Assembly: GCA_045863235.1 (NCBI GenBank)
Contig: BTUM01000016.1
Span: 32,001 to 96,000, forward strand
Origin: Candidatus Xenobia bacterium
Lineage (GTDB): Bacteria; Vulcanimicrobiota; Xenobia; Xenobiales; QWHO01
Length of the DNA: 64,000 nucleotides
Direction of reading: 5' to 3'
This document shows, piece after piece, positions 16,785 through 58,730 of this stretch. A program made the translations under genes and the position numbers. The notes beneath the pieces were generated by a model, which had not been told where the DNA came from, searched no databases, and worked only from the letters and a program-made list of their open reading frames with translations. Positions within the stretch are counted from its first letter, which is position 1; each line of letters begins with the position of its first letter.

Positions 16785-16822
16785 ATTGCCAGACTACCCC
16801 GGCACCCTCAAAAAGTGCTCAA
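16785..16822 (-). promoter_or_regulatory. Putative leaderless promoter, variant direct repeat
   Basis: Minus strand TTGAG-CACTTT-TTGAG, 10 nt, TAGTCT, 6 nt, ATG. Confidence 0.55.
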
Positions 16823-16995
16823 ATTGCTTTGGCTACAGCTTTCTTTTGGGACAGTCTTTCGTGTCAGTTGCCCAAGCACCCCTCGCTGCTGTGCACAGCG
16901 GCGCCGAACGCACGCCCACGGGTCCTATCGGATGGGACTTGGACGCGGAGCAGGGGGTCAAACAGTTACGAAAGACAGGCGCCCGACGTGTCGCT

Positions 16996-17024
16996 TTGAC
17001 TTTAGACGCGGAGGCACTTATAAT
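16996..17024 (+). promoter_or_regulatory. Sigma70-type promoter of vapBC (near-leaderless)
   Basis: TTGACT-17 nt-TATAAT, ATG 8 nt downstream. Confidence 0.8.
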
Positions 17025-17032
17025 TGGCACAT

Positions 17033-17251
17033 ATGGCTCAGGTCACTATCTATCTTCCAGACGAGATTCTCAAGCACGTAAAGCGCGAGGCAAAGCGGCG
17101 CAAGATCAGCGTGTCAGCCTACTTGACCTCCCTGGCGAGCCGCGCAGCCAAGCCACCTGAGTGGCCGCCCGACTTTGCGAGTCTCTATGGCTCTTGCCCC
17201 GACCTCAAAGAACCGGAAGACCCGCCGCCTGGTCCCGTAGAAGCTCTGTGA
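17033..17251 (+). CDS. vapB: Antitoxin, ribbon-helix-helix/CopG-like
   Basis: MAQVTIYLPDE...EAKRRKISVSAY RHH pattern; GTGA overlap with PIN toxin. Confidence 0.8.
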   Translation: MAQVTIYLPDEILKHVKREAKRRKISVSAYLTSLASRAAKPPEWPPDFASLYGSCPDLKEPEDPPPGPVEAL

Positions 17252-17643
17252 GCTACCTGCTCGACACGAATATCTGCATCCGCTTCCTGAACGGGACCGA
17301 CTCGGATCTGGCCAAGCGGCTGCTGGACTGCCCACCCGACGAGCTCTTCCTCTGCAGCATCGTCAAGGCCGAGCTTCTTTACGGAGCCCGCAAAAGCGAT
17401 CGCGTCGCGGACAACCTTCTCAGGCTCGAGCGGTTCTTTGCCGCCCTGGAGTCTCTGCCATTCTCGGATGATGCCGCTTCGCAATACGGACTCCTTCGCG
17501 CCCAACTCGAGCGCAGCGGAGAGCTCATCGGCGCAAACGACATGCTTATCGCTTCGATAGCGCTCGCCTGGGACCTCACCCTGGCAACCCGGAACGTGCG
17601 CGAGTTGAGTCGTGTACCTGGACTACGCGTCGAACGTTGGTGA
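17248..17643 (+). CDS. vapC: VapC PIN-domain ribonuclease toxin
   Basis: YLLDTNICI, ELLYGA, IGANDMLIASIAL, TRNVREL.RVPGLRVERW. Confidence 0.93.
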   Translation: MSYLLDTNICIRFLNGTDSDLAKRLLDCPPDELFLCSIVKAELLYGARKSDRVADNLLRLERFFAALESLPFSDDAASQYGLLRAQLERSGELIGANDMLIASIALAWDLTLATRNVRELSRVPGLRVERW

Positions 17644-17917
17644 CGCTTTCGCTCGGGCAATCCACGCGAGTGGCCATTGACGGCCGGTTCCGTGGTCTCG
17701 AAGGACCACTCGCATCTCATTCAACGTTCTTCAGGCTTGTCAGGGTGAGGTAGACCGGAGTGGGCTCGGTCTCCGGTCGCGAATATCGAGCAGGGCGGCG
17801 GCCTGCAGTTCGCCCGGCAGCGCGAGGCTCCCCTCGAACACGACCAGAGCGCGCTCGGGCGCGAGCTCGACGAAAGGAGCTGACCGGACGCCTTCGGTCC
17901 CTACGGCGTGTGACCCG

Positions 17918-20029: not shown

Positions 20030-20125
20030 CGCTCAGGGCCGTCCATGATCAAGATGCCGATCGCCATTCTTGGCCTGTCTGTCATTCCCCTACACAATCG
20101 AGAATTTCAGCGACGACAGGAGCGG

Positions 20126-22755: not shown

Positions 22756-22815
22756 GGCGCTGCCTTTCGTCGCCGGGCACAGGAGGCCTGCGCCCCGGCT
22801 CGAAGCCCTTCCAGT

Positions 22816-23100: not shown

Positions 23101-23239
23101 CCACCCGCGAAACGCGGTTCAGGGGGTCGACCAGAGCCCGGCCCCACCCTTGGGGGGGAAGGCCGGGGTCCTGGCACAGTATGGTGATCGGCACGTCCTT
23201 TCGGCCGCGCCGCCAGCTCACTAGGAGACCAACCAGCGA

Positions 23240-25293: not shown

Positions 25294-25296
25294 GGC

Positions 25297-25983: not shown

Positions 25984-26043
25984 GTCTGGTGCTTTCGTTT
26001 TGCCGGAAGAAGCATCCTTTCGTCAGCCGGCTGCCTGGCGAAG

Positions 26044-26544
26044 TTAAGCCTCGCTCTTGGCCCCACTCAGCTTGCTGATGCCCCCCAGCGTGGTGAAGAA
26101 GCCACCAAGTCCCATGGCTACGGCGGTGAGACCGCCGACATGGCCGAAGGCGCCGGCCGCGCTGGCCATGCCGAGCACTCCGCCGGCGCACATCAAAGTG
26201 CCGCGCAAGACCCGGTTGTCATCACCCTGAGCCCACTGGTCGGAAGCACCGCTGAAGGCCAGCAGGCCACAAAAGCGCATGGCGCCGTTGAGCAGCGTGC
26301 CGGTAGGCACGGCGGCGATGGCCGGCAGGCCGAACATGCTGGGGATGCCGATGGAGGCGGCCGCCACCAGGCCGGTGCCGATCACGGCCAGGGCCACGCC
26401 GCTGGCGATGTTGCCCTTGCGGGGGGCCTGATCCTGGCTCAGGGTCACCGTCTCTTGCGGAGACGAAAGGCTGGGGGATGCTTGCTGGGGCGAGGTGGAG
26501 CGAAAGGCGCTGATGGCCGGGGTGGTGGCGGTCTGGATGGTCAC
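26044..26544 (-). CDS. Hypothetical membrane protein, Ser/Pro-rich N-terminus
   Basis: GTG start after AGGAGG; several Gly-rich hydrophobic segments. Confidence 0.65.
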   Translation of the reverse strand: MTIQTATTPAISAFRSTSPQQASPSLSSPQETVTLSQDQAPRKGNIASGVALAVIGTGLVAAASIGIPSMFGLPAIAAVPTGTLLNGAMRFCGLLAFSGASDQWAQGDDNRVLRGTLMCAGGVLGMASAAGAFGHVGGLTAVAMGLGGFFTTLGGISKLSGAKSEA

Positions 26545-26646
26545 GGAATGGGTTCCTCCTGTTGTCTCTCTCTGGGGCCATTCTGGCACAGGTCCGGCCC
26601 GACTCAGGTTAAAGCTCTGTTTCAGCGAGTTACCGGCGTGTTGCTT

Positions 26647-26684
26647 TTCAGCTCCCTTTCAGCCACCCGGACCATCATGCATGC
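26647..26684 (+). promoter_or_regulatory. TTCAG direct-repeat leaderless promoter
   Basis: TTCAG-CTCCCT-TTCAG, 10 nt, CATCAT, 6 nt, ATG. Confidence 0.65.
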
Positions 26685-29264: not shown

Positions 29265-29404
29265 GCGTCGGGAGTTCGGGAAGCCGGTGAGAATCCGGCA
29301 CGGTTGCCGCCACTGTAAGCGAGGAGTCCGGAAGCGCCACTCTCCCGAGGGGAAGGCCTTCCAGGAGGGCACGGATCCGCGAAGTCAGGAGACCGGCCCG
29401 GCGC
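29265..29404 (+). ncRNA. Cobalamin riboswitch
   Basis: GGGAAGCCGGTGAGAATCCGGCACGG..GCCGCCACTGT, GCCACT...GGGAAGGC, B12 box AAGTCAGGAGACCGGCC; upstream of btuFCD-like genes. Confidence 0.92.
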
Positions 29405-37488: not shown

Positions 37489-37528
37489 GGCGCCACAGTC
37501 TGCACTCCGAGGCTGAAAAAAACCTGAA
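37489..37528 (-). promoter_or_regulatory. TTCAG direct-repeat leaderless promoter
   Basis: TTCAG-GTTTTT-TTCAG, 10 nt, CAGACT, 8 nt, ATG. Confidence 0.7.
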
Positions 37529-37616
37529 ATGGCCTGCCCGCCCACGCCAGAGTCCGACCAGGATCGCGCGAGCGCTGAACAGGACTCCAGCTCCCGCTCC
37601 TCCAACCACCACCCTC

Positions 37617-42904: not shown

Positions 42905-42922
42905 CCCGAGTTCGCGCCTCGG

Positions 42923-44056: not shown

Positions 44057-44096
44057 ACTCCACCAGTATGCGCGGGCCCGCTGAAGAGAAGCTGAA
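44057..44096 (-). promoter_or_regulatory. TTCAG direct-repeat leaderless promoter
   Basis: TTCAG-CTTCTC-TTCAG, 10 nt, CATACT, 8 nt, ATG. Confidence 0.7.
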
Positions 44097-44139
44097 CCCC
44101 GCCCGCACCGGCTTCTCCACCTGCGGCCAACGAGGGAAT

Positions 44140-45234: not shown

Positions 45235-45349
45235 GAAGGGACGGTTCGAGATGTTGGCCGCACATCTTCCTTTGATTCGATGAGCCAGAGTCTCCGGGCC
45301 CACTCGCTGGTTGTCCGAGCCCACTCACTCGGCTTACGACTAGATTCTG

Positions 45350-45371
45350 TGCTATAATATTTCAGATTATA
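45350..45371 (+). promoter_or_regulatory. Extended -10 promoter overlapped by inverted repeat
   Basis: TG-C-TATAAT-N7-ATTATA upstream of ATPase gene. Confidence 0.55.
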
Positions 45372-45393
45372 AACCAGGAAGGAGCCCGGCCCG

Positions 45394-46803
45394 ATGTTCC
45401 TGGATCGGGATCGCGAGTTGGAGGGGCTGAACGAGCGCTTTCGAGAGGAAAGCGCCGAGCTGTTCGTTGTCTACGGACGGCGACGCATCGGAAAATCGGC
45501 CCTGCTGAATGAGTTCGGTCGAGGCAAACCGCACGTATACTTTCTAGCTTCCCAGGTGCGCGAGGGCGACAACCTGGAGCAGTTTCGCCAGGCCCTGTCT
45601 CTCGCCCGCACCGACCCGCTGCTGGACTCTCTGCGATTTCATTCATGGGAGACGGCGCTGGCCTACCTGGGCCGGGCCGGGGAGAGCGAACGCTTCCTGG
45701 TCGTGCTCGACGAGTTTCCCTATCTGTGCCAGGAGAATCCGGCTCTCCCGTCCGTGCTCCAAAAATGGTGGGACACTCAAGGCTGCAATAGCAAGCTGTT
45801 CCTGATTCTCTGTGGCTCTCAGGTCAGCTTCATGGAGGGAGAGCTCCTGGCCGAGCGCTCGCCTCTATACGGTCGACGCACGGGCCAGCAGCGCCTGGGG
45901 CCCTTGCTTCCGTGGGATGCGGCTCGGTTCTTCCCCAATTACTCGGTGCGGGACCGCCTGGCGACCTACGGCATCCTGGGGGGGGTGCCGGCCTACCTGG
46001 AACGATTTCGCCCGGGGCAGTCGCTCAAGGCGAATCTCCTGAGAGAAGCACTCAACCCTCAGGGCTTCTTGTATGACGAGGTCCACTTTCTGCTTCGCAC
46101 CGAGCTGACGCAGATCGCCACCTATCTCACCGTTCTAAAAGCTGTTGCTGGCGGTGCCACTCGAATCTCGGAGATTGCCGATCGGGCCGGACTGCCTGTG
46201 ACAGGAGTCTCCTCGTACCTGGGGACCCTGCGCGAGTTGGGTCTCATCCGGCGGGAAGTCCCCTTCTTGGAGCCCATTCCCGAAAAGAGCAAGCGCGGGG
46301 TCTACCGTGTGGCCGACCCCTTTATCGCGTTCTGGTGCCGGTTCATCCTGCCCTACCAGAGTCTGATCCAGGCCGGTCAGGGCGAGCTCGCGTGGCGCGA
46401 GCTCATCAGCCCTTTCCTGGACACCCACCTGGGGCAGGTGTTCGAGGAGGTATGCCGGCTCTTTGTCCAGCACCGATGGGCCGAGCTGGGTTCAGCTGTG
46501 CCCTTGCGGGTAGGCAGCCAGTGGTCCGGCGACCATGACCTGGATGTCGTGGCCGAGCTCGCTGACGGAGAGAAGCGCGAGCTCCTGGTGGGGGAGTGCA
46601 AGTGGTGGAAGGGTCCGGTGGGCCGAAACGTGCTTGAGGCAGTGAGAGCCCGGGCGCAATCGCTCCGAAGCCCGTCCCGACTGGCCCTGTTCTCACTCAA
46701 CGGCTTCACTGAGGACCTGCGGGAGACCGCTGAACGAGAGGACATCGCGTTGATCGACGGTGAGAAGCTGGTTTCCAGCCTGGACAGCCCGACATCGCGC
46801 TGA
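45394..46803 (+). CDS. Archaeal-type P-loop ATPase (ATPase_2 + wHTH + DUF234/PD-(D/E)xK-like)
   Basis: FLDRDREL, YGRRRIGKS, LDEFPYL, LCGS, PLYGRRT, GGVP.YL, DPF..FW.RF, DLDVV...GECKW. Confidence 0.88.
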   Translation: MFLDRDRELEGLNERFREESAELFVVYGRRRIGKSALLNEFGRGKPHVYFLASQVREGDNLEQFRQALSLARTDPLLDSLRFHSWETALAYLGRAGESERFLVVLDEFPYLCQENPALPSVLQKWWDTQGCNSKLFLILCGSQVSFMEGELLAERSPLYGRRTGQQRLGPLLPWDAARFFPNYSVRDRLATYGILGGVPAYLERFRPGQSLKANLLREALNPQGFLYDEVHFLLRTELTQIATYLTVLKAVAGGATRISEIADRAGLPVTGVSSYLGTLRELGLIRREVPFLEPIPEKSKRGVYRVADPFIAFWCRFILPYQSLIQAGQGELAWRELISPFLDTHLGQVFEEVCRLFVQHRWAELGSAVPLRVGSQWSGDHDLDVVAELADGEKRELLVGECKWWKGPVGRNVLEAVRARAQSLRSPSRLALFSLNGFTEDLRETAEREDIALIDGEKLVSSLDSPTSR

Positions 46804-47153
46804 CCAGGCCGTGCAGGTTGCCGTGTTGATACTTCACCGATGCGGAGGACAGCAACGTGGTCAAGTCAACAATCCGTTTCAGCGTCAAGACGACCGGACC
46901 TGACGCAACCGCCGGAGGGAGAGCAATTTGCTCACTCTGCCCAGGAACGCGTTACCGTCCCAAGGATTGACGATGGTCAAGGGTCATGAATGGCTTTCCC
47001 TTTCGAGCGCTCTCGAACCGGACGGTCAGTTGAGGTCCTCGTCTCGATCTCAATCGGGCCTTGCAGAGGCTTCCTGCAGAGGCTCAGACCCGTCCCAAAC
47101 TCAAGGCACTACCGGAATCTGGAGCAGGACGAACGCGCCCGCAAGTGTTTTCC

Positions 47154-48911
47154 TTACCCTGCCACGAGCTCTCCGGCCAGCCAGGCGCGCAAAGCGGCCG
47201 GGTACCAGTCCCAGGTCCCCTCGAAGCGGGCCGCCAGCGACTGAAGGCCATGCTCGCGCAACTCGCCAGCCAGCTCGGCGCGGCGCTCGGCAAAGCCGCT
47301 GGAGAGCTGCTCGGTGCCAAAGTGCACGCTCTCCTCGCACAATCCCCAGGCTTTGCGCACCAGGGCCGCCAGCGGGTCGGCCGGGGGGTCCAGGGCGATC
47401 AGGGGTAGATCCCAATCGGGGGCGGGCTCCTCCAGATCGGGCACCACCACGCGGTCGGGGGTGCGGAAGGCGACCGGCTCGAGCACCAGGTCGCCCGCCT
47501 CGTGGCGCAGAAAGCCGCTCACCTGGACGGCCGACGGCAAGCCCCGGGCCAGCGCGTCCAGAGCGCCGGGCACGGCCCCCTCGTAGGCTCGCGCGATGCG
47601 CACCTCCTCCCCCTCCGGCAGGACGGCGCTGGCCACGATCTCCTGCTCGCCCGGGGCGTAGGCTACCTCCACCTCGGCCAGGCTCAGCACCACGAAGTCC
47701 TCGGCCAGAACCAGGGGGCGCAGCAGGCGCGGCGGGCGGGGAGGAAACTCGAGCGACTGCAGCGACTCGGGCAGCGACTCCCAGGCCTGGCCCAGGGGCA
47801 TCACCGAGTGCTTGCTCTTCTCGCGCCTCAGAGTCAGGCTGCGGTTGGCGTGGCGGCGCACGCCCTGGCTGACCAGCTGGCCCCGGGCCAGGTCGCGCAG
47901 GCGCACGTCGCCGGCCAGAGTGACTCCCGGACCGGTGTAGGCGCGCTCGAGAACCAGCACCTGGCCGGCCGGGTCGGCCAGGTAGAGCCGTACCCGATCA
48001 CCCTGAATGCGGGCGCCCAGCGAGATCAGTCGCAGGTGGTCGAGTTCGGTCTCGGGCGCGGTGTCCTGGCCCAGCACGTAGGTAGCCGACAGCTCGCTCA
48101 CACCGGCCAGGCGGGTCCGCAGGCTGAGCAGGGCAAAGGCCGCCTCGCCCACCTTGTAGCGACCCGAGCTGGCTTTGTAAAGCGCGAGCTGCTCTTGCAG
48201 GCTGTCGAGCAAGACCAGCGGCCAGGTCATGCCCGCCAGCTGCCGGCGAGCTCTCTCGAACTGGGCCTCCAGGCCTTCGGCGTGGACGACCCCTTCGCGC
48301 AACAAACGCTCGCTCAGGGCCTCTACGGCCGAAAGCTCGTGGCGGCGGGATCGGGTGGCGCCGAACTCGACCGTCTGCTGACCCTGGCGGGCAGCCCAGA
48401 CGGCCAGGGCCAGGTGCGCGCAGGCTCCCTTGTCAGCGCAGTCGCAGCGAGCCATGGAAAGCTCGCGGGGCACAAGAAAGCGCACCGAGCAGGTGGGCAG
48501 GCGCACGGCGGCGCCCTCCACCTGGGCCCGAAAGCCCTTCGCCAGCAAGGCCCGGGCTTTCTCCAGCAGGCGCTTGCCCAGAAAGCGCTCCAGCTCCTCG
48601 TCGCCGATCTCACCCGGACTCCAGGGCACTTCGTCCGGGGCCTCGCCTCGCGGGTAAGCCAGGGCCACCGCCACCCGGTGGCGGCAGACGGTGGTGGCGA
48701 GGCAGGTGCAGTTGCCCTGAGCCAGGCTCTTGCCGGGCGGCAGCGTGGCCACCACGCCGTCCTCGAAGATTCCCCGCACGGTGCCGTCGGGGTCTTCTTC
48801 CAGGCGCGGGCCCCTGCCCTCCTCAATCTCGCGGGTGGCCCGCTTGACCAGCCCCATGTTGGACAGAGCCGCGATCGCCTCCGGGGTCAGGGCGGCCAGG
48901 TCGCTGCGCAT
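47154..48911 (-). CDS. SWIM zinc-finger protein (YehQ-like)
   Basis: N.GLVKRA; CTC....CRH and CDC....CAH; TGATG coupling to VWA gene. Confidence 0.85.
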   Translation of the reverse strand: MRSDLAALTPEAIAALSNMGLVKRATREIEEGRGPRLEEDPDGTVRGIFEDGVVATLPPGKSLAQGNCTCLATTVCRHRVAVALAYPRGEAPDEVPWSPGEIGDEELERFLGKRLLEKARALLAKGFRAQVEGAAVRLPTCSVRFLVPRELSMARCDCADKGACAHLALAVWAARQGQQTVEFGATRSRRHELSAVEALSERLLREGVVHAEGLEAQFERARRQLAGMTWPLVLLDSLQEQLALYKASSGRYKVGEAAFALLSLRTRLAGVSELSATYVLGQDTAPETELDHLRLISLGARIQGDRVRLYLADPAGQVLVLERAYTGPGVTLAGDVRLRDLARGQLVSQGVRRHANRSLTLRREKSKHSVMPLGQAWESLPESLQSLEFPPRPPRLLRPLVLAEDFVVLSLAEVEVAYAPGEQEIVASAVLPEGEEVRIARAYEGAVPGALDALARGLPSAVQVSGFLRHEAGDLVLEPVAFRTPDRVVVPDLEEPAPDWDLPLIALDPPADPLAALVRKAWGLCEESVHFGTEQLSSGFAERRAELAGELREHGLQSLAARFEGTWDWYPAALRAWLAGELVAG

Positions 48912-50041
48912 CAAGCCGAGACCCGCTCGCCGATCCAGGCGGCCAGCTGGCCCGGCGTCATGGCGCCCACATGGGCGCCCACGTCCACCAGCCGGCCGGC
49001 CAGCTCCTTGTCATAGATCGGCTCGGCTCCCTCGTCCAGGGCGGCCAGCCCCAGCACCGTGGTACCCTGCTCGCACAGGCCTTTGACGGTGCGCACCAGG
49101 CGCTGGGCGTCTCCCCCCTCGAAGAAGTCGGTGATGAGCGCGATGATGGTGCGACGAGGGTTCTCCACCAGGCCGGCAGCAAAGTCCACCGCTTTGGCGA
49201 TGTCGGTGCCCCCGCCCAGCTGCACCCGCATCAACAGCTCGACCGGGTCGGTGCAGTCGGCTGTCAGATCCACCACCTCGGTGGAGAAGACCGCCAGGTG
49301 CGTCTTCAGCATCGGCACCGACCAGAAGCAGGCGGCCGTGATGGCCGAGTGGATCACCGAGCCCAGCATGCTGCCCGACTGATCCACCAGCAGGATCAGC
49401 TGCCAGGCGGCCCGGTGGCGACGGCTGCGCTGGAAGAAGTAGGCCTTCTCGAGGTAGAGCTTGCGCGTCTCGGGGTCGTAATGCTTGAGGTTGGCCCGCA
49501 CCGTGCGCTCGAGGTCGAGGTCGCGGGAGAACTTGAAGGGGGACGAGCGGGCGTTGCGACGCGGGCCCGAGAAGCTTTTTTGCACTTCGCGGGCCAGCTT
49601 CTCCATCAGCTCCTCGACCACTTTGCGCACCAGCTCGCGGGCCAGCTCGAGCACCTCGGGGTTCATCAGGTGGCGGGTCTTGAGCACCGCCTGCAGCAGC
49701 GTCTGGTTGGGCTGGACCCGCTTCAAGACCTCGGGATTGGTCACCACCTCGTCGATCTGGAAGCGCTCCACGGCGTCCTTCTCCAGCCGCTCGATCGTCT
49801 CGCGGGGAAACAGCGTGTGGACCTGGTTGATCCAGTCGGCCACCGAGAGCTGGGGCGCCTCCTGACCGCCCTTGCGCCCCGCCATGATGTCCCGCGACTT
49901 CAGGCCCGGGTCGCGGTTATAGAGCCAGGACAGAGCCGCATCGCAGGCCCCCTCCTCGCCCTGCAGGCAGCAACCGAGCTGGGGCTGGGAGGCCTCGCCC
50001 AGCACCAGGCGCCAGCGTACCAGGCCGTCCTCATAAGCCAT
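48911..50041 (-). CDS. VWA-domain protein (YehP-like)
   Basis: RWRLVLG, MIDAS DQSGSM, GGGTDI, ITDFFEGG. Confidence 0.9.
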   Translation of the reverse strand: MAYEDGLVRWRLVLGEASQPQLGCCLQGEEGACDAALSWLYNRDPGLKSRDIMAGRKGGQEAPQLSVADWINQVHTLFPRETIERLEKDAVERFQIDEVVTNPEVLKRVQPNQTLLQAVLKTRHLMNPEVLELARELVRKVVEELMEKLAREVQKSFSGPRRNARSSPFKFSRDLDLERTVRANLKHYDPETRKLYLEKAYFFQRSRRHRAAWQLILLVDQSGSMLGSVIHSAITAACFWSVPMLKTHLAVFSTEVVDLTADCTDPVELLMRVQLGGGTDIAKAVDFAAGLVENPRRTIIALITDFFEGGDAQRLVRTVKGLCEQGTTVLGLAALDEGAEPIYDKELAGRLVDVGAHVGAMTPGQLAAWIGERVSA

Positions 50042-52178
50042 AGCGCTCGATGGTCCTTTCCAACTCGGCGTCGAGCTGCATGCCGGCCGCCACCAGGGCG
50101 GGGTCCACCGCGTTGCGCAACAGCTCGAAGTTGGACTCCAGCCCGTAGAGCCGGGCCACGATGGCGGCCACGGCCTGGCGTTCGCGGGGAGGGAAGGCGG
50201 AAAAGGCCAGGCGCAGGCCCGGCAGGGCGCGCAGAAAGTCGGTTCGGTCCAGCCCCCTGAGCAGCTGATCGACCAGCCTGAGCAGACCCTCGGCCCGCTG
50301 CACCTCCTCGCGGGCCAGGGCAAAGAGGCCGGCCAGGAAGTCTCCCAGGGCCTCGGGGGGATGCAGGGCGCGCACGGCTTGCTCGGCCTCCTCCTCGCCG
50401 GGAACCAGCTCGAGCGACCAGAGGTAGCCCAGAGCGGCGCCCTGGCACACTCGGGGTGCGTCCTTGAGCCGCCTTCGCATGACCCCTTCAGCCAGCTCGC
50501 GCGCAAGCTCGAGCTCGCGGCCCAGCTTGTGCATGTCGCGCAGGGTGACCACCGCCTTGACGATGCCGGCGGTGGCGCCGTCCAGACCTTCGAAGAGCCA
50601 CAGCCCGCGGGCGAAACCGGCCTGGAGGATGACTGGAAAGTCGGGTCCCAACTTCTGACGGTAGAGCCCGAAGAGGGTGCTCAGGGCACCGCCCAGGAGC
50701 TCCAGGTCGACCTCTGCCCCCAGCGCCCGGGCCACCTCCTGCACCAGCTCCCGGCCCAGCTCGGTGAGGCCGGCCCTCACGGCCAGGGCCAGGCAGGCCG
50801 CCAGGCCGACCGCATCCGTCTCGCCCGAGAGGGCCTGGCGCAGCACCCCGATGGCCGCCTGCTCGAGGTCGGAGCCGTAGGCCGAGGCCTCCACCAGGGC
50901 CGCCTCCAGGTCGAGGCTCTCCTGCAGCACCCAGGTCTCCTCCACCAGCTCCTCTGCCTTCAGGTGAAAGCCCGGCAGCCGCAGCAGGGCCAGGCGGCGC
51001 AGAAAGTAGCTTCTCTCCGTGCCCACCTCGACCGTCACCTGGCGGGCCGGCCGGGTGGGCTTCAGCTCGAGCGCCTCCAGGGCGGCCAGCACCTCGTCCA
51101 CCAGCGGCGGACGGGGCGTGCCGCCGGCCAGCTTGCCCACCCGCTTGCCCGAGAAGGCTGCCACCAGCTCCACCAGCACCGGGTCGGTGCCCGCCCCGAG
51201 TGTCCCCCGCCGGCTCCAGGGCAGCTCGCTCTGCAGGGCCTCCTTGACCAGAGCGCCCACCAGGCCGTCCAGCAGATCGGTGCGCATCGGGAAGTCGTGA
51301 CCACGCAGCCGGGCCAGGCCGTGGGCCAGCGTGCTGGCCGCCACCAGGTCGGCTGAGGAGAGGGCCAGCTTCTTGTCGCGCAGGCGGTGGGTCACGTCGT
51401 GCAGGGCCCGGCGGGCGGCCTCGCCGGCCCCCGCCTCCCAGACGTGCTGGTAGTAGCCGGGCGAGGGCATACCGGCGTCGTAGCCCTGAAAACTGTCCAG
51501 CCGGTGGAAGCTGAAAGGCACCAGATAGCTGCCGGTATCGCTGGCCGGCTCGAGCTCGGGCCACTCGGATCGGGGAAGGGCCTCTTCCAAGAAGGGCGCG
51601 TGGTAGCCTCCGCACACGGCCACCACGCGGTCTTCATAGGTATGCCGGGCCCAGCCCAGGCAGGCGGCCATGTAGGCCTCGCGCTCGGCATCCTCGGGGC
51701 TGACGCTGGTGCGAATGGTTTGAAAATAGCGCCGGAGGCGGTCTTCCAGGTCGTCTCCAGGATGTTCGAAGAGGTGGTCCCAGAGGCTGTCCGGGTCGTC
51801 GAAGCCCAGCTCGCGAGCCAGCTCGTCCTGGCCGGGCTCGCGTCGGTCGGCGTAACGGTTGGTGCGCTCGCGCATGGATTTGTGCCAGGCCGGCAGGTCC
51901 ATGAAGCGCACATCGGCCCCCAGCTCGCGTCCCACCGTCAGGGCCACCCACTCGGGCGAGTAGGCGCAGAACGGCGTCCAGGCAGCGCACTCGCCCTTCT
52001 GGAAGCTGAACACGGCCAGGGGTAGTTGGTGGCCCAGGTGCAGCTCGTCCAGGCGGCCGTTGAAGTCGGACGGCCCTTCGATCAGCACGCAGGCCGGTCT
52101 GACCGCGCGCAGCACCCGCTCGACCAGACGGGCGCAGGCGGGGCTGTGATGGCGGATACCGAGGACCCTGGTCGCCAT
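50031..52178 (-). CDS. DUF5682 family protein (YehM-like)
   Basis: GIRHHSPACA, LIEGP.D, SPEWVA, RE.YMA, CGGYH, GY.AGMPSP. Confidence 0.88.
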   Translation of the reverse strand: MATRVLGIRHHSPACARLVERVLRAVRPACVLIEGPSDFNGRLDELHLGHQLPLAVFSFQKGECAAWTPFCAYSPEWVALTVGRELGADVRFMDLPAWHKSMRERTNRYADRREPGQDELARELGFDDPDSLWDHLFEHPGDDLEDRLRRYFQTIRTSVSPEDAEREAYMAACLGWARHTYEDRVVAVCGGYHAPFLEEALPRSEWPELEPASDTGSYLVPFSFHRLDSFQGYDAGMPSPGYYQHVWEAGAGEAARRALHDVTHRLRDKKLALSSADLVAASTLAHGLARLRGHDFPMRTDLLDGLVGALVKEALQSELPWSRRGTLGAGTDPVLVELVAAFSGKRVGKLAGGTPRPPLVDEVLAALEALELKPTRPARQVTVEVGTERSYFLRRLALLRLPGFHLKAEELVEETWVLQESLDLEAALVEASAYGSDLEQAAIGVLRQALSGETDAVGLAACLALAVRAGLTELGRELVQEVARALGAEVDLELLGGALSTLFGLYRQKLGPDFPVILQAGFARGLWLFEGLDGATAGIVKAVVTLRDMHKLGRELELARELAEGVMRRRLKDAPRVCQGAALGYLWSLELVPGEEEAEQAVRALHPPEALGDFLAGLFALAREEVQRAEGLLRLVDQLLRGLDRTDFLRALPGLRLAFSAFPPRERQAVAAIVARLYGLESNFELLRNAVDPALVAAGMQLDAELERTIERYGL

Positions 52179-52190
52179 CGTGGCGCCTAG

Positions 52191-52310
52191 AGGCCCGGCC
52201 GGAAAGGCCGGGCCGATCTACATCTTGTGGCTAGGAGCCGGCCGCCTACACAACATCTTGTGGAGACGGAGGTTTCCTCCGACTCCACAAGGGGGTTTGC
52301 GGCCGGACTC
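52191..52310. mobile_element. MITE/REP-like 120-bp element flanked by CTAG
   Basis: CTAG at 52187-52190 and 52311-52314; imperfect terminal IRs AGGCCCGGCCGGAAA / GAGTCCGGCCGCAAA (rc); two internal hairpins. Confidence 0.55.
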
Positions 52311-54350
52311 CTAGTCGCCATCCCGGGGCCGGAACCAGAAGCTCAAGGCGTAGAGAGCCAGCGCGGTGAGATAGAGCGAGCGAAGTCCGAAAGCCATGGA
52401 GGTGTATTCCAGAGCGCCCCCGACCATCGCCCCCAGCATGTTGCAGGCCAGCGCGCTGGTGGCTCGTTTGGTCCTGGAGAAGGAGACGCCGAAGATGATG
52501 GCCGCGAACAACAGGGGCACCGAGATACCGGCCACCGCCCCCATCTTGGCGAGCACCGAGGCGCCCACGCTCAGCTCGCGCAGGGGCACCAGGTAGAGCA
52601 GCACCACCACCCCCAGCAAGAGGGCGTAGGGCAGCTCCAGAGCGGGTTTCTTCTCGCGCCCGAGCAGCCACACGTTGGCCAGGAAGATCATGGTCAGAAT
52701 GCTGGCGATCACGATGGAGTTGACGATCCAGGTGGAGCCGAACATCAGCCCCAGCTCGGTGATGCTCTTGGTCTCGATGAGCATGAAACCGGCCCCCAGG
52801 AAGAACATCTGGGGCTGGAACTGAAAGCCCGTGCCGCGCACCGTGGTGGAGATGAGCAGGGTGGAGATGAGCAGCAGAATGCCCAGCGCGATCAGATATT
52901 CCTTGGGGATGGTCTTGTTGTTGAGATAAAGCTGGGGCCAGTCGTCGGTGGCCTGGATCAGGGCTCCGGGCATGTTGGCTCGGGCATTCTCGACGTTGAC
53001 GTTGAGGCGCACCTCGCCCTCGACGTTGACCTGCTGGGTGATGGGAGCTTCCTGGCAGATGTACTGCGAGTACTGCTGGTTATAGATGAAGAAGGCAGGG
53101 TCCTTGCCAAACACGTCGCGCAGGGTGACGAAGAGACGAATGGGCACGAACTCACCCATGTAGCCCACGTTCACGTACATCACGCCGTCCTTGGCCAAAA
53201 GCCTGCGTGCCTCTTCGAAAGACTGGCGGGTGTAGACGTAGTTCTCGATCTTGATGCTGGACATCTGTGAGAACAACCCGTGCGAGTCGAGCGTGCCGAA
53301 GATGATCAGGTCGTACTTCTCGGTGGCCCGGCGCAGATAGGAGCGAGCGTCGTCGTTGATGAGATGCACCCGCGAGTCCAGATAGGCCTTCATGGGGTGC
53401 CGCTCGCGCCCGAGGCGGGCCACAATGGGATCGATCTCGACCGCGTCCACCTGCTCGGCGCCCTGCAGCAGAGCCATGGCCACGTCGTTGCCCATGCCGC
53501 CACCCAGGATGAGCACTTTCTTGGGGTGGGGCTTGAAGATGTAAGGGAAAGCATAGAATCGACGGAAGAACTCGCTCCCCTTCTCGGGCGAGAGGTCCAG
53601 GCCGGTCAACAGGCAGCTGTTGCCGATCTGGATGTAGACGTTGCCGTTGGGCTCGGTGTGAAAGCGGATGTTGTAGTAGGGAGACCAGTACTTCTCGTAG
53701 TTCTTGCTCTTCTCCAGGTGGCCCTCGAAACCGTAGAGCCCCATTCCAAGGAAGACGGCAAAGAGGACAAAGGCTGCCTTGCGGTGGGTGAAGGGCAGCA
53801 AGAGGAGCATCCCCACGGTGACCCACACGGCCGGGCCGGTGCAGAGGAACGAGAGGATGGAAAAGCCCGCGATCCCGAGCAGGCTGGCCAGGATGTTGAC
53901 GGTGTAGGCATAAAGCGGCGGAAACTTGTCGAAGTAGCGCTGCAACAGCTGTCCGAGCGGCACGAACGTCATGGCCACCAGGGTGGTGAACAGGGCCAGC
54001 GTGAGGTACATGTCGATGTGGCCTTCGCGGTTACCGATGTACGCATCGTCATTGAAAAAGACCCCCTCGTTGGGAGGCCGCACCTCGATCTCGAACTTGA
54101 GGAAGACCGCGAAAAGAGCCATCTGCACCAGGCAGAACAGCACGAAGCGCGTCAGCAGCGCGTCGTCGGTGTCGCGCTCCTTGAGCGGGCGGGCCAGGCC
54201 GATGCCCAGGCCCAGAAAACACGAGAGCAGAACGAAGTTCGAGAAGAACCCGAAGAAATGAATCGCGTCCGGCAGCCAGCGGATGAAGAGTAGCTCGAAG
54301 AACAGTACCAGAAAGCTGGCTAGAAACAGCTTGATTTTGTGGTCACGCAT
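52311..54350 (-). CDS. Polytopic membrane protein with spermidine-synthase-like SAM domain
   Basis: TM bundles either side of VLILGGGMGNDV...VEIDP...DDAR; ATDDWP; FFLGAGFMLIET. Confidence 0.85.
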   Translation of the reverse strand: MRDHKIKLFLASFLVLFFELLFIRWLPDAIHFFGFFSNFVLLSCFLGLGIGLARPLKERDTDDALLTRFVLFCLVQMALFAVFLKFEIEVRPPNEGVFFNDDAYIGNREGHIDMYLTLALFTTLVAMTFVPLGQLLQRYFDKFPPLYAYTVNILASLLGIAGFSILSFLCTGPAVWVTVGMLLLLPFTHRKAAFVLFAVFLGMGLYGFEGHLEKSKNYEKYWSPYYNIRFHTEPNGNVYIQIGNSCLLTGLDLSPEKGSEFFRRFYAFPYIFKPHPKKVLILGGGMGNDVAMALLQGAEQVDAVEIDPIVARLGRERHPMKAYLDSRVHLINDDARSYLRRATEKYDLIIFGTLDSHGLFSQMSSIKIENYVYTRQSFEEARRLLAKDGVMYVNVGYMGEFVPIRLFVTLRDVFGKDPAFFIYNQQYSQYICQEAPITQQVNVEGEVRLNVNVENARANMPGALIQATDDWPQLYLNNKTIPKEYLIALGILLLISTLLISTTVRGTGFQFQPQMFFLGAGFMLIETKSITELGLMFGSTWIVNSIVIASILTMIFLANVWLLGREKKPALELPYALLLGVVVLLYLVPLRELSVGASVLAKMGAVAGISVPLLFAAIIFGVSFSRTKRATSALACNMLGAMVGGALEYTSMAFGLRSLYLTALALYALSFWFRPRDGD

Positions 54351-54386
54351 CCCGGGATGCCTTCCTCGGGGGCCGGTCCAGCCCTG

Positions 54387-54462
54387 CTAGAGGTCGTACC
54401 GCAAACCCCTTGTGGGGAGGGAACCTCCGCCACCACAAGATGTTGTAGGCGGCCCGACTTCT
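54387..54462. repeat. Second, partial and inverted copy of the 52.2-kb element
   Basis: Reverse complement aligns with ~52232-52314 (GGCCGCCTA..CAACATCTTGTGG..CGGAGGTT.CCTCC..CCACAAGGGG.TTTGCGG..CTAG). Confidence 0.75.
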
Positions 54463-54628
54463 CTGGATTATGCTTCACAGCCAACTGCGCGCGACTGAAG
54501 GGGGAAACGGTCGGAATCGCCAAAGGAGTTCGCCACGCCTTCGGGCAGACGGGGGGTGCTCAGTGAAAATCTTCTTCATCCCGGGCGGGGCTCCAGGAGC
54601 GCTGACGCTCTGAGATCAGGGCGCGGGG

Positions 54629-55468
54629 TCAGCCACCCCGCCGCTTGAGCACCACGCCTCCCACCGCCACACCGCGACCGAGCTGGCCGATCGAGCTGCC
54701 CTGGGGCTCATGCTGCTCTTTCAGGGCCAGCACCTCCTGGAGCGAGCGCATCGCCCCCCCTGCAATCATGGTGTTGAGCTGGTTGCCCCCTTCGTGCTCT
54801 TCCCAGAAATTGTAGTTCGAGAACCCTTTGGTGAGGAAGTCGAGGCTCTTGCGGGTGCAGTCGAGCTGCTGCTCGGGGTCAAAGCGCGCCACCAGGTTGG
54901 CCAGTGCCCGGACGTGGGCGAAGCCAGGCTGCTCGGGGTGCCACTGGTCCGACTCCACCGAGGCGGCCATGGTCCGACCCAGCTGTACCAGCTGGCTGGG
55001 GGCGAGGTCCTGGTCCAGAGCCTCCATGGCCAGGTCCACCGGACGACCGGCGCAGTAACGGGCCTGGGTCTGCTCGCGGCTCTGGCGCACCAGGCAGGGC
55101 CCCTCGGTCTGGGGCAATTGCGACTCATCGCCCAGGATCGCCAGGGCCAGAGAAGCCACCGGTCGGTCCTGCAGGGCACCAAACAGAAGGTTGGCCGCCT
55201 GCAGGCGAAGCTCCGGCTCGTGGGCGGGGATCTGCCTCACCAACTCGCGCCCCCGCGTCAGCATGGCCTCGCCCGACATGGTCTTCAGTTCTTCCACCGC
55301 CGCCAGGTTGCGGGCTCGTTCGGCCCGCTGGGCAGCGATGTAGGCCTGCGCCTCGGCCAGCGCCTTGTCGTAGTCCGACTGCCCGGACCGGTAGGAATCG
55401 CCCGAGGAGCTGGCCCGGGCGGGCAGACTGAGCTGGTTGTGAGTGAAGACATGGGCGCCGATCCGCAT
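54629..55468 (-). CDS. Hypothetical helical protein with C-terminal GGV tail
   Basis: 279-aa ORF; tail SSIGQLGRGVAVGGVVLKRR. Confidence 0.75.
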   Translation of the reverse strand: MRIGAHVFTHNQLSLPARASSSGDSYRSGQSDYDKALAEAQAYIAAQRAERARNLAAVEELKTMSGEAMLTRGRELVRQIPAHEPELRLQAANLLFGALQDRPVASLALAILGDESQLPQTEGPCLVRQSREQTQARYCAGRPVDLAMEALDQDLAPSQLVQLGRTMAASVESDQWHPEQPGFAHVRALANLVARFDPEQQLDCTRKSLDFLTKGFSNYNFWEEHEGGNQLNTMIAGGAMRSLQEVLALKEQHEPQGSSIGQLGRGVAVGGVVLKRRGG

Positions 55469-55506
55469 GACTTGTGCTTAGCAGTGGACCCTGAAAGAAA
55501 GCTGAT
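55469..55506 (-). promoter_or_regulatory. TTCAG direct-repeat leaderless promoter
   Basis: ATCAG-CTTTCT-TTCAG, 10 nt, TAAGCA (weak -10), 6 nt, ATG. Confidence 0.6.
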
Positions 55507-55515
55507 CGGCTGTTC

Positions 55516-55583
55516 TGAAATGGGGCGCCCATTCAGGGCGGGTCCGTGTCCTGAATAGGGCGCCCCATTCGGGCGCGTCCGTG
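55516..55583. repeat. Tandem palindromic ~33-bp units forming a long hairpin
   Basis: AATGGGGCGCCCATTCAGG pairs with CCTGAATAGGGCGCCCCATT; both units end GGGCG.GTCCGTG. Confidence 0.6.
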
Positions 55584-55602
55584 GGCTTGCCTGAAGCCAG
55601 AC

Positions 55603-57429
55603 CTACCGACGGTAGCGGGCTACGAACTCCTCGGCGGCGGCGCGGTCGGGGAGCACGATCACTCCCACGTCGTCGAACCGTGCTGCCGAGTCGGTGGGCG
55701 AGGTGCTTCCGCTGGCCTGGTTGAGGAAGACGCGGATCCGCGTGGTCGAGGGCTTGAGGTCGTAGATCCCCCAGACCGGCACGACCTGGTCCCGGGCGGT
55801 CGCGGCCGAGCGCATGCTGTCGCCCTGGAGGTAGTCGCTGATCTGCTCTTCGCTCTCCATCAGGTAGCCGTAGAGGTAGGGCAGCCCGGTGATGTCGCCG
55901 TCCGGGTTGACGCGCTCGGAGGAGACCCGGGCCACCAGCACCACCACCCCGCTGCGCAGCGTGGGCGGCAGCACCACGTCTTGCCAGAACGAGCCCCCGT
56001 GACGGACCGTGAAGCGTCCCTCCTCCACGCTGGCCTCCCCATCCTTACGCCAACGGGCGGCGCCCTGGTTGGCCTTCGGGTTGCGCAGCAGGTTGCGCTG
56101 GCCAAGGATCTGCCCTTCCTCCGGGTCCACCGTGGCCGCCGGCGCCGCGGTTACGGCCTCAGGGCGGGGGGCCACCGGGGTGGCTCCGGGGCGCCAGACG
56201 ATCACGCTGCGGTCCTCCGAGCCCGAGATCAGGGCCTGCCCCGCCAGGGTCAGCGAACGGACGCCGTCGCGGTGACCCTTCAGCTGACCGGCGCGGCCCC
56301 CCCGGGAAACGGACCAGAGGTAGATGTCCCCGTTGTTGCCCGCCGTCGCCAGCGTGTCGCCGTCGGAAAGGAAGCAGACATCCCACATCGCCACGTCGCT
56401 CACGTAGTTGTTGAGCAGCTCCTTGCCACTGCTCGAGTCGAGCACCACCACGCTGGTGTCCAGCATGGCCACGGCCAGCTTCGAGCCGTCGCCGCTGAAG
56501 GCCACGCCCCCGGCGTCACACTCGGCCGAGACCTTCTTGAGCCGAATCTTCCGTTTGGACCAGTCGGAGGTGCTCCAGAGGACAACTTCGTTGCCGCGGC
56601 CGGCGCCGGCCAGGTAGCGTCCGGTCGGGTCGAAGGCCAGCTGGCGCACCCAGACCTCTCCCAGATCGCGACCGTTCACCACGACCGGCTGGTCGAAGCT
56701 GGTCGTGGCCAGCAGCTTGCCATCGGGGCTGAGGGCCAGGCACTCCCCTCGAGCGTCGACCGGGGCTCCGGTCCCGAGGGTCCCCTCGCTCAGGGGAAGG
56801 GCGTTGACGCTGTCCTTGTCGGCCACCAGCACGCGGGACTCGCTCTCAAAGCTCCAGTCCTCCTTCTCGAGCTTCCAGTGGCCGCTCTCCAAGAGCATGG
56901 TCGCCTGGCCCTTGCCGCGAACAGCGTCGTCGACCACGAGGCCGGTTGGGCGGCTCGGGAGAGTGCTCTGACTCACCTGATGGCCGGTTTCCAGAGACCA
57001 GACGCGGACGCTGTAGTCCCCGTTGCTGGAGGTCACCAGGAACCGGCCGTCGCTGGTGCAGGCGAGTTGATCGACCGCATCCTGGTGGCCCTTCAGAACC
57101 TGGGCCGGGGCCAGATTCTCCATCGCCTTCGTGGCCTTCGCCGGCTCGGGAGGGATGGAGAGCTCGAGGATGGCGCGAGCGCCATCCACCTTCACCTGCT
57201 CGATCTTGACGCTGGGCGGAAGCATCTTCCTGATCAGCTCGAGCTTCTTCGGATCCTTCAGCTCTTGAGCATGCTTTCCGGTGAGCCTCTGCTGGATCGC
57301 CTGGGCGTCACCGGAGCGCAAGGCGTCCTGGTAGGCCTGGTAGCTCTGCATGGCCTCCCGGCTCGGGCTCGCGCAGCCCGACATCACCAGGAAACCGACG
57401 GCGAGACACAATCTGCGTGTGCTGTGCAT
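55603..57429 (-). CDS. WD40-repeat lipoprotein with NTF2-like N-domain and jelly-roll-like C-domain
   Basis: Lipobox MSGC; LKGH...VRVW and LKGH...SEDRSVIVW; C-terminal NLLRNP..N.G...W...FDDV. Confidence 0.8.
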   Translation of the reverse strand: MHSTRRLCLAVGFLVMSGCASPSREAMQSYQAYQDALRSGDAQAIQQRLTGKHAQELKDPKKLELIRKMLPPSVKIEQVKVDGARAILELSIPPEPAKATKAMENLAPAQVLKGHQDAVDQLACTSDGRFLVTSSNGDYSVRVWSLETGHQVSQSTLPSRPTGLVVDDAVRGKGQATMLLESGHWKLEKEDWSFESESRVLVADKDSVNALPLSEGTLGTGAPVDARGECLALSPDGKLLATTSFDQPVVVNGRDLGEVWVRQLAFDPTGRYLAGAGRGNEVVLWSTSDWSKRKIRLKKVSAECDAGGVAFSGDGSKLAVAMLDTSVVVLDSSSGKELLNNYVSDVAMWDVCFLSDGDTLATAGNNGDIYLWSVSRGGRAGQLKGHRDGVRSLTLAGQALISGSEDRSVIVWRPGATPVAPRPEAVTAAPAATVDPEEGQILGQRNLLRNPKANQGAARWRKDGEASVEEGRFTVRHGGSFWQDVVLPPTLRSGVVVLVARVSSERVNPDGDITGLPYLYGYLMESEEQISDYLQGDSMRSAATARDQVVPVWGIYDLKPSTTRIRVFLNQASGSTSPTDSAARFDDVGVIVLPDRAAAEEFVARYRR

Positions 57430-57565
57430 TGTTTCCCCCTTCTGTTTGTTGCTGCAAGGATCATACGATAGAGCAGCGTCCGCCTGGCACATTCAGGCGA
57501 GCGGGGTTGAGTGCCGCCTGGGAAGCGGGGCGAGGGAGATTACCAGGCAGATCAATTGATCTAAT

Positions 57566-58651
57566 TCAGGGCAGGGCGTGCCGGGCGTCGAAGAACGCCT
57601 TCCAGAGCGGCCCGCGGCGCTTGGAAATACGCTGCTCGAGGTAGCGCCGCAGGCGCTTGACGTCCTCGGCGTTGTCCTTGATGGCCGTTCCCAGGATGCA
57701 CTCCATCAGGTCCTCGGGGTTGGCGGACCGGCCGCCCAGGTAGTGGGCCCGGATGCCCACGGCGTGGGCCACCGAGACCGCCTCGGCGGTGGACATGGCG
57801 GTGCTGAGGCGCTCCAGAGCGTCGCCCTCGGGGGTCTTGCCTTCGCGCAACTCGCGGAACGTGGTCACCAGGATTTCCAGCAGGTCGCGCGGGGGTGCCT
57901 GGGGCACCCCCGAGCGCTGCAGGAGCTGAGCCGTCTCGCGCTCGACCAGCTCCAGCTCCACCTCACGGTCTGCGATGGGGAACACGGTTTCGAAGTTGAA
58001 GCGGCGCTTGAGAGCGGCGCTCATCTCGTTGGTGCCCCGGTCGCGGGTGTTGGCCGTGGCCAGCAGGTTGAAGCCCTCGCGGGCGTAGAGCCGGGTTTCC
58101 TCGCCCTCGAGCTCGGGCAGGAACAGCACCCGGTCGGACAACACCGAAAGCAGCGAATCCTGAATCTCGCTCGGGCAGCGAGTGATCTCCTCGAAGCGCA
58201 CCACTTTGCCGTGCAGCATGCCGAGATAGAGCGGAGCCGGCACCAGCGCCTTGCGGCTGGGCCCCTCGGCCAGCAGCAGGGCGTAGTTCCAGCCGTACTT
58301 GATCTGGTCTTCGGTGGTGGCGGCGCTGCCCTGGATGGTCAGGGTGGACTCGCCGCTGACGGCCGCGGCCAGAAGCTCGGACAAGAACGACTTGGCCGTG
58401 CCCGGCTCGCCCACGAGCAAGAGCCCGCGGTTGGTGGCCAGGGCCACCATGGCCCGATCCACCAGCGAGGGGTTGCCCACGAACTTGGGCCGGATCTTCT
58501 GTTTGGGATCGCCCAGAATGAAGCTGCGCACCGCCCGGGGCGAGAGGGCCCAACCGGGCGGGCGCGGGTCTTTGTCGCTCTTTCTCAGCCGGGCCAGCTC
58601 GTCGGCGTAGACCAGCTCGGCCGGAGGGCGCTGCAGGCTATCGGTGGACAC
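57566..58651 (-). CDS. MoxR-type AAA+ ATPase (YehL-like)
   Basis: RPPAE, RPPGWALSP, GEPGTAKS, RFEEITR, ATANTRDRG.NEMSAALKRRFNF; GTG start inferred. Confidence 0.9.
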   Translation of the reverse strand: MSTDSLQRPPAELVYADELARLRKSDKDPRPPGWALSPRAVRSFILGDPKQKIRPKFVGNPSLVDRAMVALATNRGLLLVGEPGTAKSFLSELLAAAVSGESTLTIQGSAATTEDQIKYGWNYALLLAEGPSRKALVPAPLYLGMLHGKVVRFEEITRCPSEIQDSLLSVLSDRVLFLPELEGEETRLYAREGFNLLATANTRDRGTNEMSAALKRRFNFETVFPIADREVELELVERETAQLLQRSGVPQAPPRDLLEILVTTFRELREGKTPEGDALERLSTAMSTAEAVSVAHAVGIRAHYLGGRSANPEDLMECILGTAIKDNAEDVKRLRRYLEQRISKRRGPLWKAFFDARHALP

Positions 58652-58691
58652 GAGGGCCGCGTTCGACCGCCCGGGGTGGGTTCCCTGGGTT

Positions 58692-58730
58692 GTCAGGCTC
58701 CTTTCAGCCGTCGGGCTTACACTGTTCCCT
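58692..58730 (+). promoter_or_regulatory. TTCAG direct-repeat leaderless promoter
   Basis: GTCAG-GCTCCT-TTCAG, 10 nt, TACACT, 7 nt, ATG. Confidence 0.7.

Follow-up and report, generated by a model that had tools for sequence, protein, structure and literature searches.

Why should six dispersed genes in one stretch of a Candidatus Xenobia genome be preceded by the same spaced pair of short repeats, and what might their products have in common? The stretch, hereafter the window, comprises 64,000 nucleotides of contig BTUM01000016.1 (assembly GCA_045863235.1, positions 32,001 to 96,000), and an earlier note had listed in it six pairs of TTCAG-like pentamers, each followed at a fixed distance by a hexamer and an ATG. 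All six were recovered exactly, with the coordinates, strands, pentamers and hexamers given there, and no other match occurs in the window, either to a relaxed pattern or, at 10 bits or more, to a genome-trained matrix, under which the six score 24.6-33.7 bits. At every one of the six an in-frame ATG lies 6-8 nt past the hexamer (offsets 38, 38, 40, 40, 38 and 39 in coordinate order; Table 1). The explanation we favor, with moderate confidence, is that the box is an activator site marking an effector regulon of 359 genes, the products of which would be exported by a flagellum-derived secretion system.

Homologues bearing the names Ca. Xenobia, Xenobium, Bruticola and Vulcanimicrobiota assign the genome (8.36 Mb, 66% GC, 97.6% complete, 7062 genes called, 88% coding) to class Ca. 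Xenobia within Eremiobacterota/Vulcanimicrobiota. With n=6, TTCAG-Nn-TTCAG has 112 occurrences in it, compared with 3-27 for each of the other 19 spacings (0 to 19), and 99 of the 112 pairs are intergenic, although the genome is mostly coding. Two features that formed no part of the search pattern emerged around these pairs: a YAnnCT hexamer ten bases past the second repeat, with T, A and T at the -10 positions enriched to 62, 74 and 77%, and an ATG or GTG at offsets 38-41 (54 of 112 pairs). The last base of the N6 spacer is T in 84-89% of cases, so that the unit is better described as a hexamer repeat with an 11-bp period, (T)TTCAG-N5-TTTCAG, which refines the N6 spacer originally proposed. 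An iterated matrix for the full element, (T)TTCAG-N5-TTTCAG-N10-YAnnCT, finds 379 sites of at least 16 bits, against 12, 0 and 1 for three permuted matrices, bearing out the proposal of a dispersed regulon under one cis-element. The sites map to 359 genes, 369 of the 379 point at a gene on the same strand, and the TTTCAG pair is the strongest spaced pair among upstream regions.

The earlier description of the element as always fixed relative to the start codon holds for 246 of the 379 sites, where an in-frame start stands at offsets 37-42 (a leaderless-type start is met by chance at 39 of 3000 random positions). At 117 sites the gene start lies further on, mostly 55-90 nt from the box, and 16 have none. 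Shine-Dalgarno-like motifs precede 6 of 249 leaderless boxed genes versus 1276 of 6756 others. Because of this scarcity and of the position of the start after the -10, we infer leaderless transcription from most boxes, and most of the mRNAs would start at the ATG. Parts of the window occur in 12 RNA runs, as assembled contigs; depth over window positions 42000-61500 (X1-X4) and over the region of the pilin-like genes described below (X1, X2, X11 and X12) is flat at about 2-7 across genes and spacers, so that neither expression nor starts can be read from it.

The box is conserved across related bacteria. Full-pattern counts in 201 genomes, with reversed-pattern controls of 0-4, are 81-98 in three same-genus genomes, 35-51 in genus g4, 69-75 in g5 and 8-30 in g2; they fall to 11-13 in family f4, 0-3 in f3, 0 in f5 and 0-8 elsewhere in the phylum. 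Homologues of the glycosyltransferase encoded at 26685 (42-88% identity; families f1, f2 and f3) carry a box of 20-28 bits at all ten of the closest loci, with an in-frame start at offset 38-41 in nine of them. Altogether 19 of 29 such loci examined are boxed, the ten without a box being distant paralogues or partial. For three further window genes the box is retained at seven of seven congener loci. Across orthologous promoters the hexamers and their spacing remain constant while the intervening bases diverge, and TTTAAG variants are present. Only 2 of the 379 sites share 70% flank and spacer identity with another site; since, in addition, nearly all point at a same-strand gene, the box is no mobile repeat.

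What the boxed genes share is largely at the ends of their proteins. A C-terminal tail, VxExxxxVxVGGVxVRxR (hereafter the GGV tail), was found by position-specific profile in 189 genes and in none of 4822 mid-protein control windows. The overlap test that had been proposed between this tail and the box gives 125 boxed genes among the 189 versus 230 among the 6873 others (odds ratio 56). This beta-rich, basic tail is present on about a third of the regulon proteins. It has at least 100 matches in each of three same-genus genomes and 2-11 in six more distant ones, where it lies near a stop in 18 of 18 cases checked; searches of PDB sequences, of NCBIfam and of the atlas gave no match. Ten f2 genomes searched have no tail match and many boxes, and the box is therefore more widely distributed than the tail.

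At the other end, leaderless boxed proteins begin M-[IQLN]-[IV] and are Ser- and Pro-rich. By crude hydrophobicity and pattern tests for Sec and lipoprotein signals, a hydrophobic N-terminus occurs in 7 of 249 versus 1606 of 6756 other proteins and a lipobox in 0 of 249 versus 69 of 6574. A cross-validated classifier trained on the first 30 residues (area under the curve of 0.90) is positive for 178 of 249 leaderless boxed proteins (71%), 58% of 84 leadered boxed proteins and 50% of 56 unboxed tail proteins. The controls are 12% of 162 sigma-H-like leaderless genes and 46 of 252 (18%) unboxed leaderless genes of sigma-A type. The leaderless controls mostly lack the signature and leadered boxed genes keep it, which argues that it is not a by-product of leaderless translation. 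Compared with unboxed paralogues, 26 of 73 boxed copies, which are ordinary enzymes, carry an N-terminal extension of at least 20 aa, versus 23 of 180 control pairs.

A Pfam scan (threshold 1e-7) covered 141 of the 359 targets, and 97 of these had no match, in keeping with the suggestion that the targets are orphan genes; three of the six window genes do contain Pfam domains, so that the label does not hold throughout. The 44 matched targets include SLT, NlpC/P60, C92 amidase and endonuclease I domains, peptidases of families M48, C11, C1, C26 and S51, GDPD, four acyltransferases, an MGDG synthase, a lipid desaturase and eight PQQ-like propellers. Folds that are normally extracytoplasmic (SLT, NlpC/P60, endonuclease I and the propellers) thus occur in targets without Sec signals. 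The absence of Sec, Tat and lipoprotein signals, together with a Ser/Pro-rich N-terminus that is often added to an enzyme core, matches the sequence features of type III substrates. A YidD-clostripain fusion (L262:1320-3794; G000:C7:90747-93224) is also a boxed, leaderless member of the regulon.

A candidate machine is present. Contig C27 encodes flgBC, fliEFGGHIJ, a lytic transglycosylase (slt), fliK, a 271-aa hook/rod-like gene, fliMNNOPQQR and flhBA, and contig C74 encodes flgFG, flgJ and fliA. FlhA passes the flagellar model (809 bits, above cut-off) and scores 609 bits, below cut-off, against SctV. Profile searches of the 97.6% complete genome gave no match to flagellin or MotB, and tblastn with a relative's FliC, FlgK, FlgL, FliD, FlgA/H/I, MotA/B, FlgM, FliS and FliW likewise gave none; the same relative's FlgG and FlhA do match, and its filament and motor genes sit in a separate cluster. 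The apparatus accordingly resembles neither a motile flagellum, which has flagellin, a hook-filament junction, a cap and MotAB, nor an injectisome, as SctV models fail, rod genes are present and secretins lie off the locus. A type VI secretion sheath was not found in the genome. Synteny of the cluster extends to families f2 and f3, and its FlhA is at least 66% identical in 51 of 52 genomes outside families f14, f18 and f19 and in 0 of 29 inside them. Flagellin is present in 8 of 41 relatives, and flagellin-bearing relatives have a second, distant FlhA. A FliA/WhiG-like sigma factor gene (L028:3-302, G000:C74; L063) is retained in flagellin-less genomes, with regions 2.4 and 4.2 altered.

Three identical 81-aa genes, of a family found in 35 of 41 relatives, lie behind flhA. 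The protein has no Pfam match; its AlphaFold model is one long helix, and its atlas look-alikes are HrpA-pilin clusters (0.90-0.91). One copy carries the TTTCAG box in four congeners, and the other copies have sigma-A-type promoters.

Several variants of FlhA were noted in passing. Five proteins consist of the cytoplasmic FlhA domain only (G000:C80:28012, C3:26973, C1:377631, C106:14866 and C107:13658; L002, L003), one of them fused to a FliG-like N-terminus; these are possible substrate adaptors of the export machine. In genus g2 (L037/G009, G005, G011, G015) the secretion-type flhA gives two separate matches with a gap of about 60 nt in a single open frame, reflecting an insertion after the membrane domain, and the gene lies behind a metH-like gene.

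Taken with the protein termini, this cluster leads us to propose that the targets are exported through the flagellum-derived apparatus. The Ser/Pro-rich N-terminus would act as a type III export signal, the GGV tail would further sort a subset of the products, the 81-aa protein would be a pilus subunit and the cargo would be delivered to a prey or host cell. A number of observations count against this proposal. Genes and start positions depend on a simple purpose-made gene caller. A minority of targets are conventional membrane proteins or carry a signal peptide (MFS, nucleoside transporter-like, 7TM-HD), and the boxes of families f14 and f18 lie ahead of genes for envelope proteins with signal peptides. 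Small f3 genomes conserve the export cluster and have 0-3 strict boxes, so that box and machine are not obligately linked. Passage across the outer membrane is unexplained, as L and P rings were not found in the genome and all three secretins are on contigs other than that of the export cluster. Within the machine only FliE, FlgJ and FliK score regulon-like at the N-terminus; rod, hook-like and pilin-like proteins do not. The 81-aa gene was not found with this query in six g4 genomes that have 35-51 boxes, and its likeness to HrpA is a language-model lead, with the family on 23-24% of cluster members. Finally, the 14 OmpR-type genes of this genome that were checked all lack an upstream box, which gives no sign of autoregulation, and the response regulator that we rank first as reader of the box (C4:32828, below) is only 52-68% conserved across families and also occurs in box-poor or box-free genomes (G091, small f3).

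In a different account, the box is still an activator site but the regulon is an envelope-stress or developmental program, the proteins remaining intracellular, periplasmic or enclosed in an internal compartment and the shared N-terminus serving another targeting route or the translation of these mRNAs. As in envelope-stress regulons, the boxes of f14 and f18 stand before response-regulator operons and before genes for YceI-like proteins and lipoproteins; lipid enzymes and duplicated versions of housekeeping enzymes are numerous among the targets; and the search for an outer-membrane ring of the export machine gave nothing. However, the signature is rare in the two other leaderless promoter classes and is retained in leadered boxed genes, the SLT, NlpC/P60, endonuclease I and propeller targets are without Sec signals, and a boxed pilin-like gene ends the export cluster itself. 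We regard this account as unlikely, though it is the best of the alternatives.

Two other promoter classes of the genome bear on what reads the box. A second 11-bp direct repeat, TGTTAAC-N4-TGTT(A/C)AC, has 253 sites at 160 genes, including the export operons and one copy of the pilin-like gene. It lies upstream of flgB (G000:C27:79435-79455; L005) and of the hook-like gene (C27:69614-69634), and is found on the flgB and hook-like operons both in this genome and in G013. Only 3 of its 160 genes also belong to the TTTCAG set, and 42 of 147 TGTTAAC-repeat genes are classifier positive. It is likely to be read by the YycF-like regulator C4:205130, which is 95-100% identical across families. Control in two tiers is likely, with the WalR-like TGTTAAC repeat serving the apparatus operons and the TTTCAG box most of the cargo. 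The other class, AGG-N17/18-CGAA(C/T), is leaderless and stands 8-10 nt before about 200 ordinary genes; it was tried as a set of FliA promoters and proved to be a general sigma-H-like class.

As to the box itself, an OmpR/PhoB-type activator working with the housekeeping sigma factor is likelier than an alternative sigma factor, because unboxed leaderless genes have a -10 of the same kind and neither of the repeats stands where a sigma-4 domain would reach it. The same preference for C in the -10 is seen in 350 unboxed leaderless genes, a set partly selected by pattern. A sigma-70 -35 element does not appear in the box matrix, whether beneath the repeats or next to them, and neither does either element of the sigma-28 (FliA) promoter type TAAA-N15-GCCGATAA. 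A direct repeat with a 10-11-bp period at a fixed spacing of about 10 bp from a sigma-70-type -10 is the arrangement of OmpR/PhoB-type promoters. A head-to-tail OmpR-type dimer would bind both hexamers, replace the -35 element and recruit housekeeping RNA polymerase. The earlier suggestion of one activator or alternative sigma factor therefore survives in its first half, with a CiaR-like geometry and a -10 shared with unboxed genes, while the repeat distances leave the second half weak.

In all, 26 winged-helix matches and 20 sigma factors were counted in the genome. The best candidate, put forward tentatively, is C4:32828 (G000:C4:32828), a response regulator of the CiaR/PmrA class that is present in all box-positive Xenobia tested and whose recognition helix, NVVEVH[ILV]S[SA]LR, resembles VVEVYVSKVR of CiaR. 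A more doubtful second is the ultra-conserved YycF-like regulator (G000:C4:205130), which is likewise present in all box-positive Xenobia tested and also in box-poor ones, and which was ranked lower because the WalR-like TGTTAAC repeat was found. Among distant relatives, an OmpR-family regulator gene follows the box in two cases. The quick tree made during candidate profiling was used for grouping only. Four other regulators were rejected: C22:57818 is absent from G017 (all 137 candidates scored), reaches at best 50% in G019 and has a variable recognition helix; C6:90245 is not conserved; C58:11228 is absent from four g2 genomes; and C6:55737 has a TGTCAC repeat of its own. That repeat, a Pho-box-like TGTCAC-N5-TGTCAC ahead of the response regulator gene (G000:C6:55737-56399), stands ten bases from its -10 and marks a separate autoregulated system.

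In a rival reading the conserved FliA/WhiG-like sigma factor recognizes the box, and the boxed genes form a late class comparable to the late flagellar substrates under sigma-28. Its gene (TIGR02479) stands behind flgFG-flgJ and has a match in 41 of 41 relatives, its region 2.4 (YNGLRR) and region 4.2 (SKQRVSQ) differ from the sigma-28 residues, and none of the other promoter classes could be attributed to it. A sigma-4 domain, however, needs 16-19 nt to the -10, and the repeats end about 10 and 21 nt before it; a pair of repeats points to a dimer, unboxed leaderless genes have a similar -10, and f3 genomes that have 0-3 strict boxes conserve the factor equally well. We consider this reading improbable; a combination of sigma factor and activator is possible. 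Less probable again is that the repeat is an operator, with a repressor covering the -35 region until released on contact with prey or host. The repeats do overlap the -35 position and the sign of regulation cannot be read from sequence alone, but there is no sigma-70 -35 in the matrix, and fixed phasing to the -10 is a hallmark of activators, repressor sites usually varying in position. That the matches are chance or remnants of a mobile repeat is hardly credible, REP-like repeats in the window and beside the 55506 site notwithstanding, given the excess of pairs at n=6, the two sites alone that share flanks and spacer, and the hexamers kept across families while the bases between them diverge.

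The features of the window are collected in Table 1. The 901-aa tail gene behind the propeller gene at 44056 is either co-transcribed with it or driven by the sigma-H-like promoter class.

Table 1. Boxes, target genes and other features of the 64-kb window (coordinates are window positions).
Feature	Position	Strand	Basis or remark
Box variant TTTGAG-N5-TTTGAG with -10 TAGTCT; ATG at 16784	16791..16823	-	sequence; 28.8 bits
Target gene, 164 aa, central hydrophobic stretch	16290..16784	-	no Pfam match; without GGV tail
Box TTTCAG-N5-TTTCAG with -10 CATCAT; ATG at 26685	26646..26678	+	28.3 bits
MGDG-synthase/GT28-like glycosyltransferase, 421 aa	26685..27950	+	N-terminal extension of about 38 aa relative to unboxed paralogue
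Box with -10 CAGACT; ATG at 37488	37497..37529	-	33.7 bits; kept in 3/3 congeners
Target gene, 331 aa	36493..37488	-	no Pfam match; GGV tail
Box with -10 CATACT; ATG at 44056	44065..44097	-	25.5 bits; kept in 2/2 congeners
PQQ-like beta-propeller, 377 aa	42923..44056	-	without signal peptide; GGV-type tail
GGV-tail gene, 901 aa	40157..42862	-	without own box; 60 nt behind 44056 gene
Box with weak -10 TAAGCA (TAATCT in two congeners); ATG at 55468	55475..55507	-	24.6 bits
Target gene, 279 aa	54629..55468	-	no Pfam match; GGV tail
Box with -10 TACACT; ATG at 58731	58691..58723	+	29.0 bits
PQQ-like beta-propeller, 383 aa	58731..59882	+	without signal peptide; GGV tail
Gene with upstream AGG-N17/18-CGAA(C/T) promoter	57566-58651	-	sigma-H-like class
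166-aa gene divergent from the 26647 box	26044-26544	-	Ser/Pro-rich, regulon-like N-terminus; Shine-Dalgarno; no own-strand box
Repetitive extragenic palindromic (REP)-like repeats	52186-52315, 54380-54460, 55510-55595		many congener copies; one directly upstream of 55506 box
Cobalamin riboswitch	29277-29395	+	ahead of ABC transporter operon
KdpD/KdpE two-component pair	32-2829	+	unrelated to box

Comparison with known systems places the box in a familiar promoter type. PhoB, CreB (TTCAC-N6-TTCAC) and MprA boxes are similar. The closest likeness is to the CiaR box of streptococci, NTTAAG-N5-TTTAAG, which lies ten bases before the -10 of 15 promoters and is read by an OmpR-family regulator (PMC3091779). 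Both are hexamer direct repeats with an 11-bp period, a better-conserved second copy and ten bases to a sigma-70-type -10, and TTTCAG here is one base from TTTAAG there, a variant that orthologous promoters here also contain. They differ in scale, the 15 promoters of CiaR standing against 379 sites, and in context, two thirds of the sites here being leaderless and before export-type genes. The WalR/YycF box, TGTWAH-N5-TGTWAH (PMC4168254), fits the TGTTAAC repeat ahead of the export operons and does not fit the TTTCAG box.

For the machine, three comparisons are useful. Hrp systems are non-flagellar type III secretion systems with a secretin, AraC-type or extracytoplasmic function (ECF) sigma regulation, and PIP-box or hrp-box regulons. 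As in Hrp systems, a small helical pilin-like subunit ends the export cluster and one element marks scattered Ser/Pro-rich effectors, whereas neither a secretin-bearing non-flagellar apparatus nor AraC or ECF regulation fits what is found in Xenobia. In Legionella the response regulators PmrA and CpxR mark many dispersed effector genes (PMC2701608), and these effectors carry a C-terminal signal. The Icm/Dot system is, however, of type IVB and directed at eukaryotic targets, in contrast to the flagellum-derived candidate machine here, and the Xenobia proteins have an N-terminal signature and, in about a third, a C-terminal tail. The needleless type III apparatus of Myxococcus, T3SS*, is needed for prey lysis (PMC3459982, PMC12075869) and resembles the Xenobia cluster in being vertically inherited, in having no secretin, motor or flagellin and in belonging to a presumed predator. 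T3SS* lacks FlgBC, FliE, FliG and a needle subunit, whereas Xenobia has retained the rod together with FliE, FliG, FliK and FliA, and its cluster has an FlhA of flagellar score and multicopy pilin-like genes.

A CiaR-like promoter type, effector regulons under response regulators and a secretin-less type III apparatus in a predator are therefore already known. Our search of the open-access literature found no paper describing the TTTCAG box, the GGV tail or the regulon; the large regulon (box plus about 360 genes), the tail and their proposed link to the machine appear to be new.

The cell-wall and membrane enzymes among the targets suggest bacterial prey. For the related Candidatus Eudoremicrobiaceae a predatory lifestyle has so far been proposed from marker gene counts alone, and flagellar annotation there was read as motility (PMC9259500). 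The bacterial prey predicted here would be in line with that lifestyle. From a single motif one obtains a list of about 360 candidate exported proteins of a lineage that is widespread and uncultured; most belong to no known family, and likely antibacterial enzymes are among them. The list is tied to a conserved flagellar cluster, which annotation would take for a motility locus. More tentatively, Xenobia and related classes may represent an independent and still flagellum-like step toward a delivery machine, in which rod and export gate were kept, filament and motor lost and an HrpA-like pilus gained, and which in this genus would, under control in two tiers, deliver several hundred effectors, a repertoire of Legionella size, to prey bacteria or to a microbial host, with a new GGV sorting tail on about 190 proteins. 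If true, this would be a living intermediate for how flagella became injection devices, and the regulon would offer a way into the question of how this little-known and probably predatory lineage attacks other cells or makes use of them.

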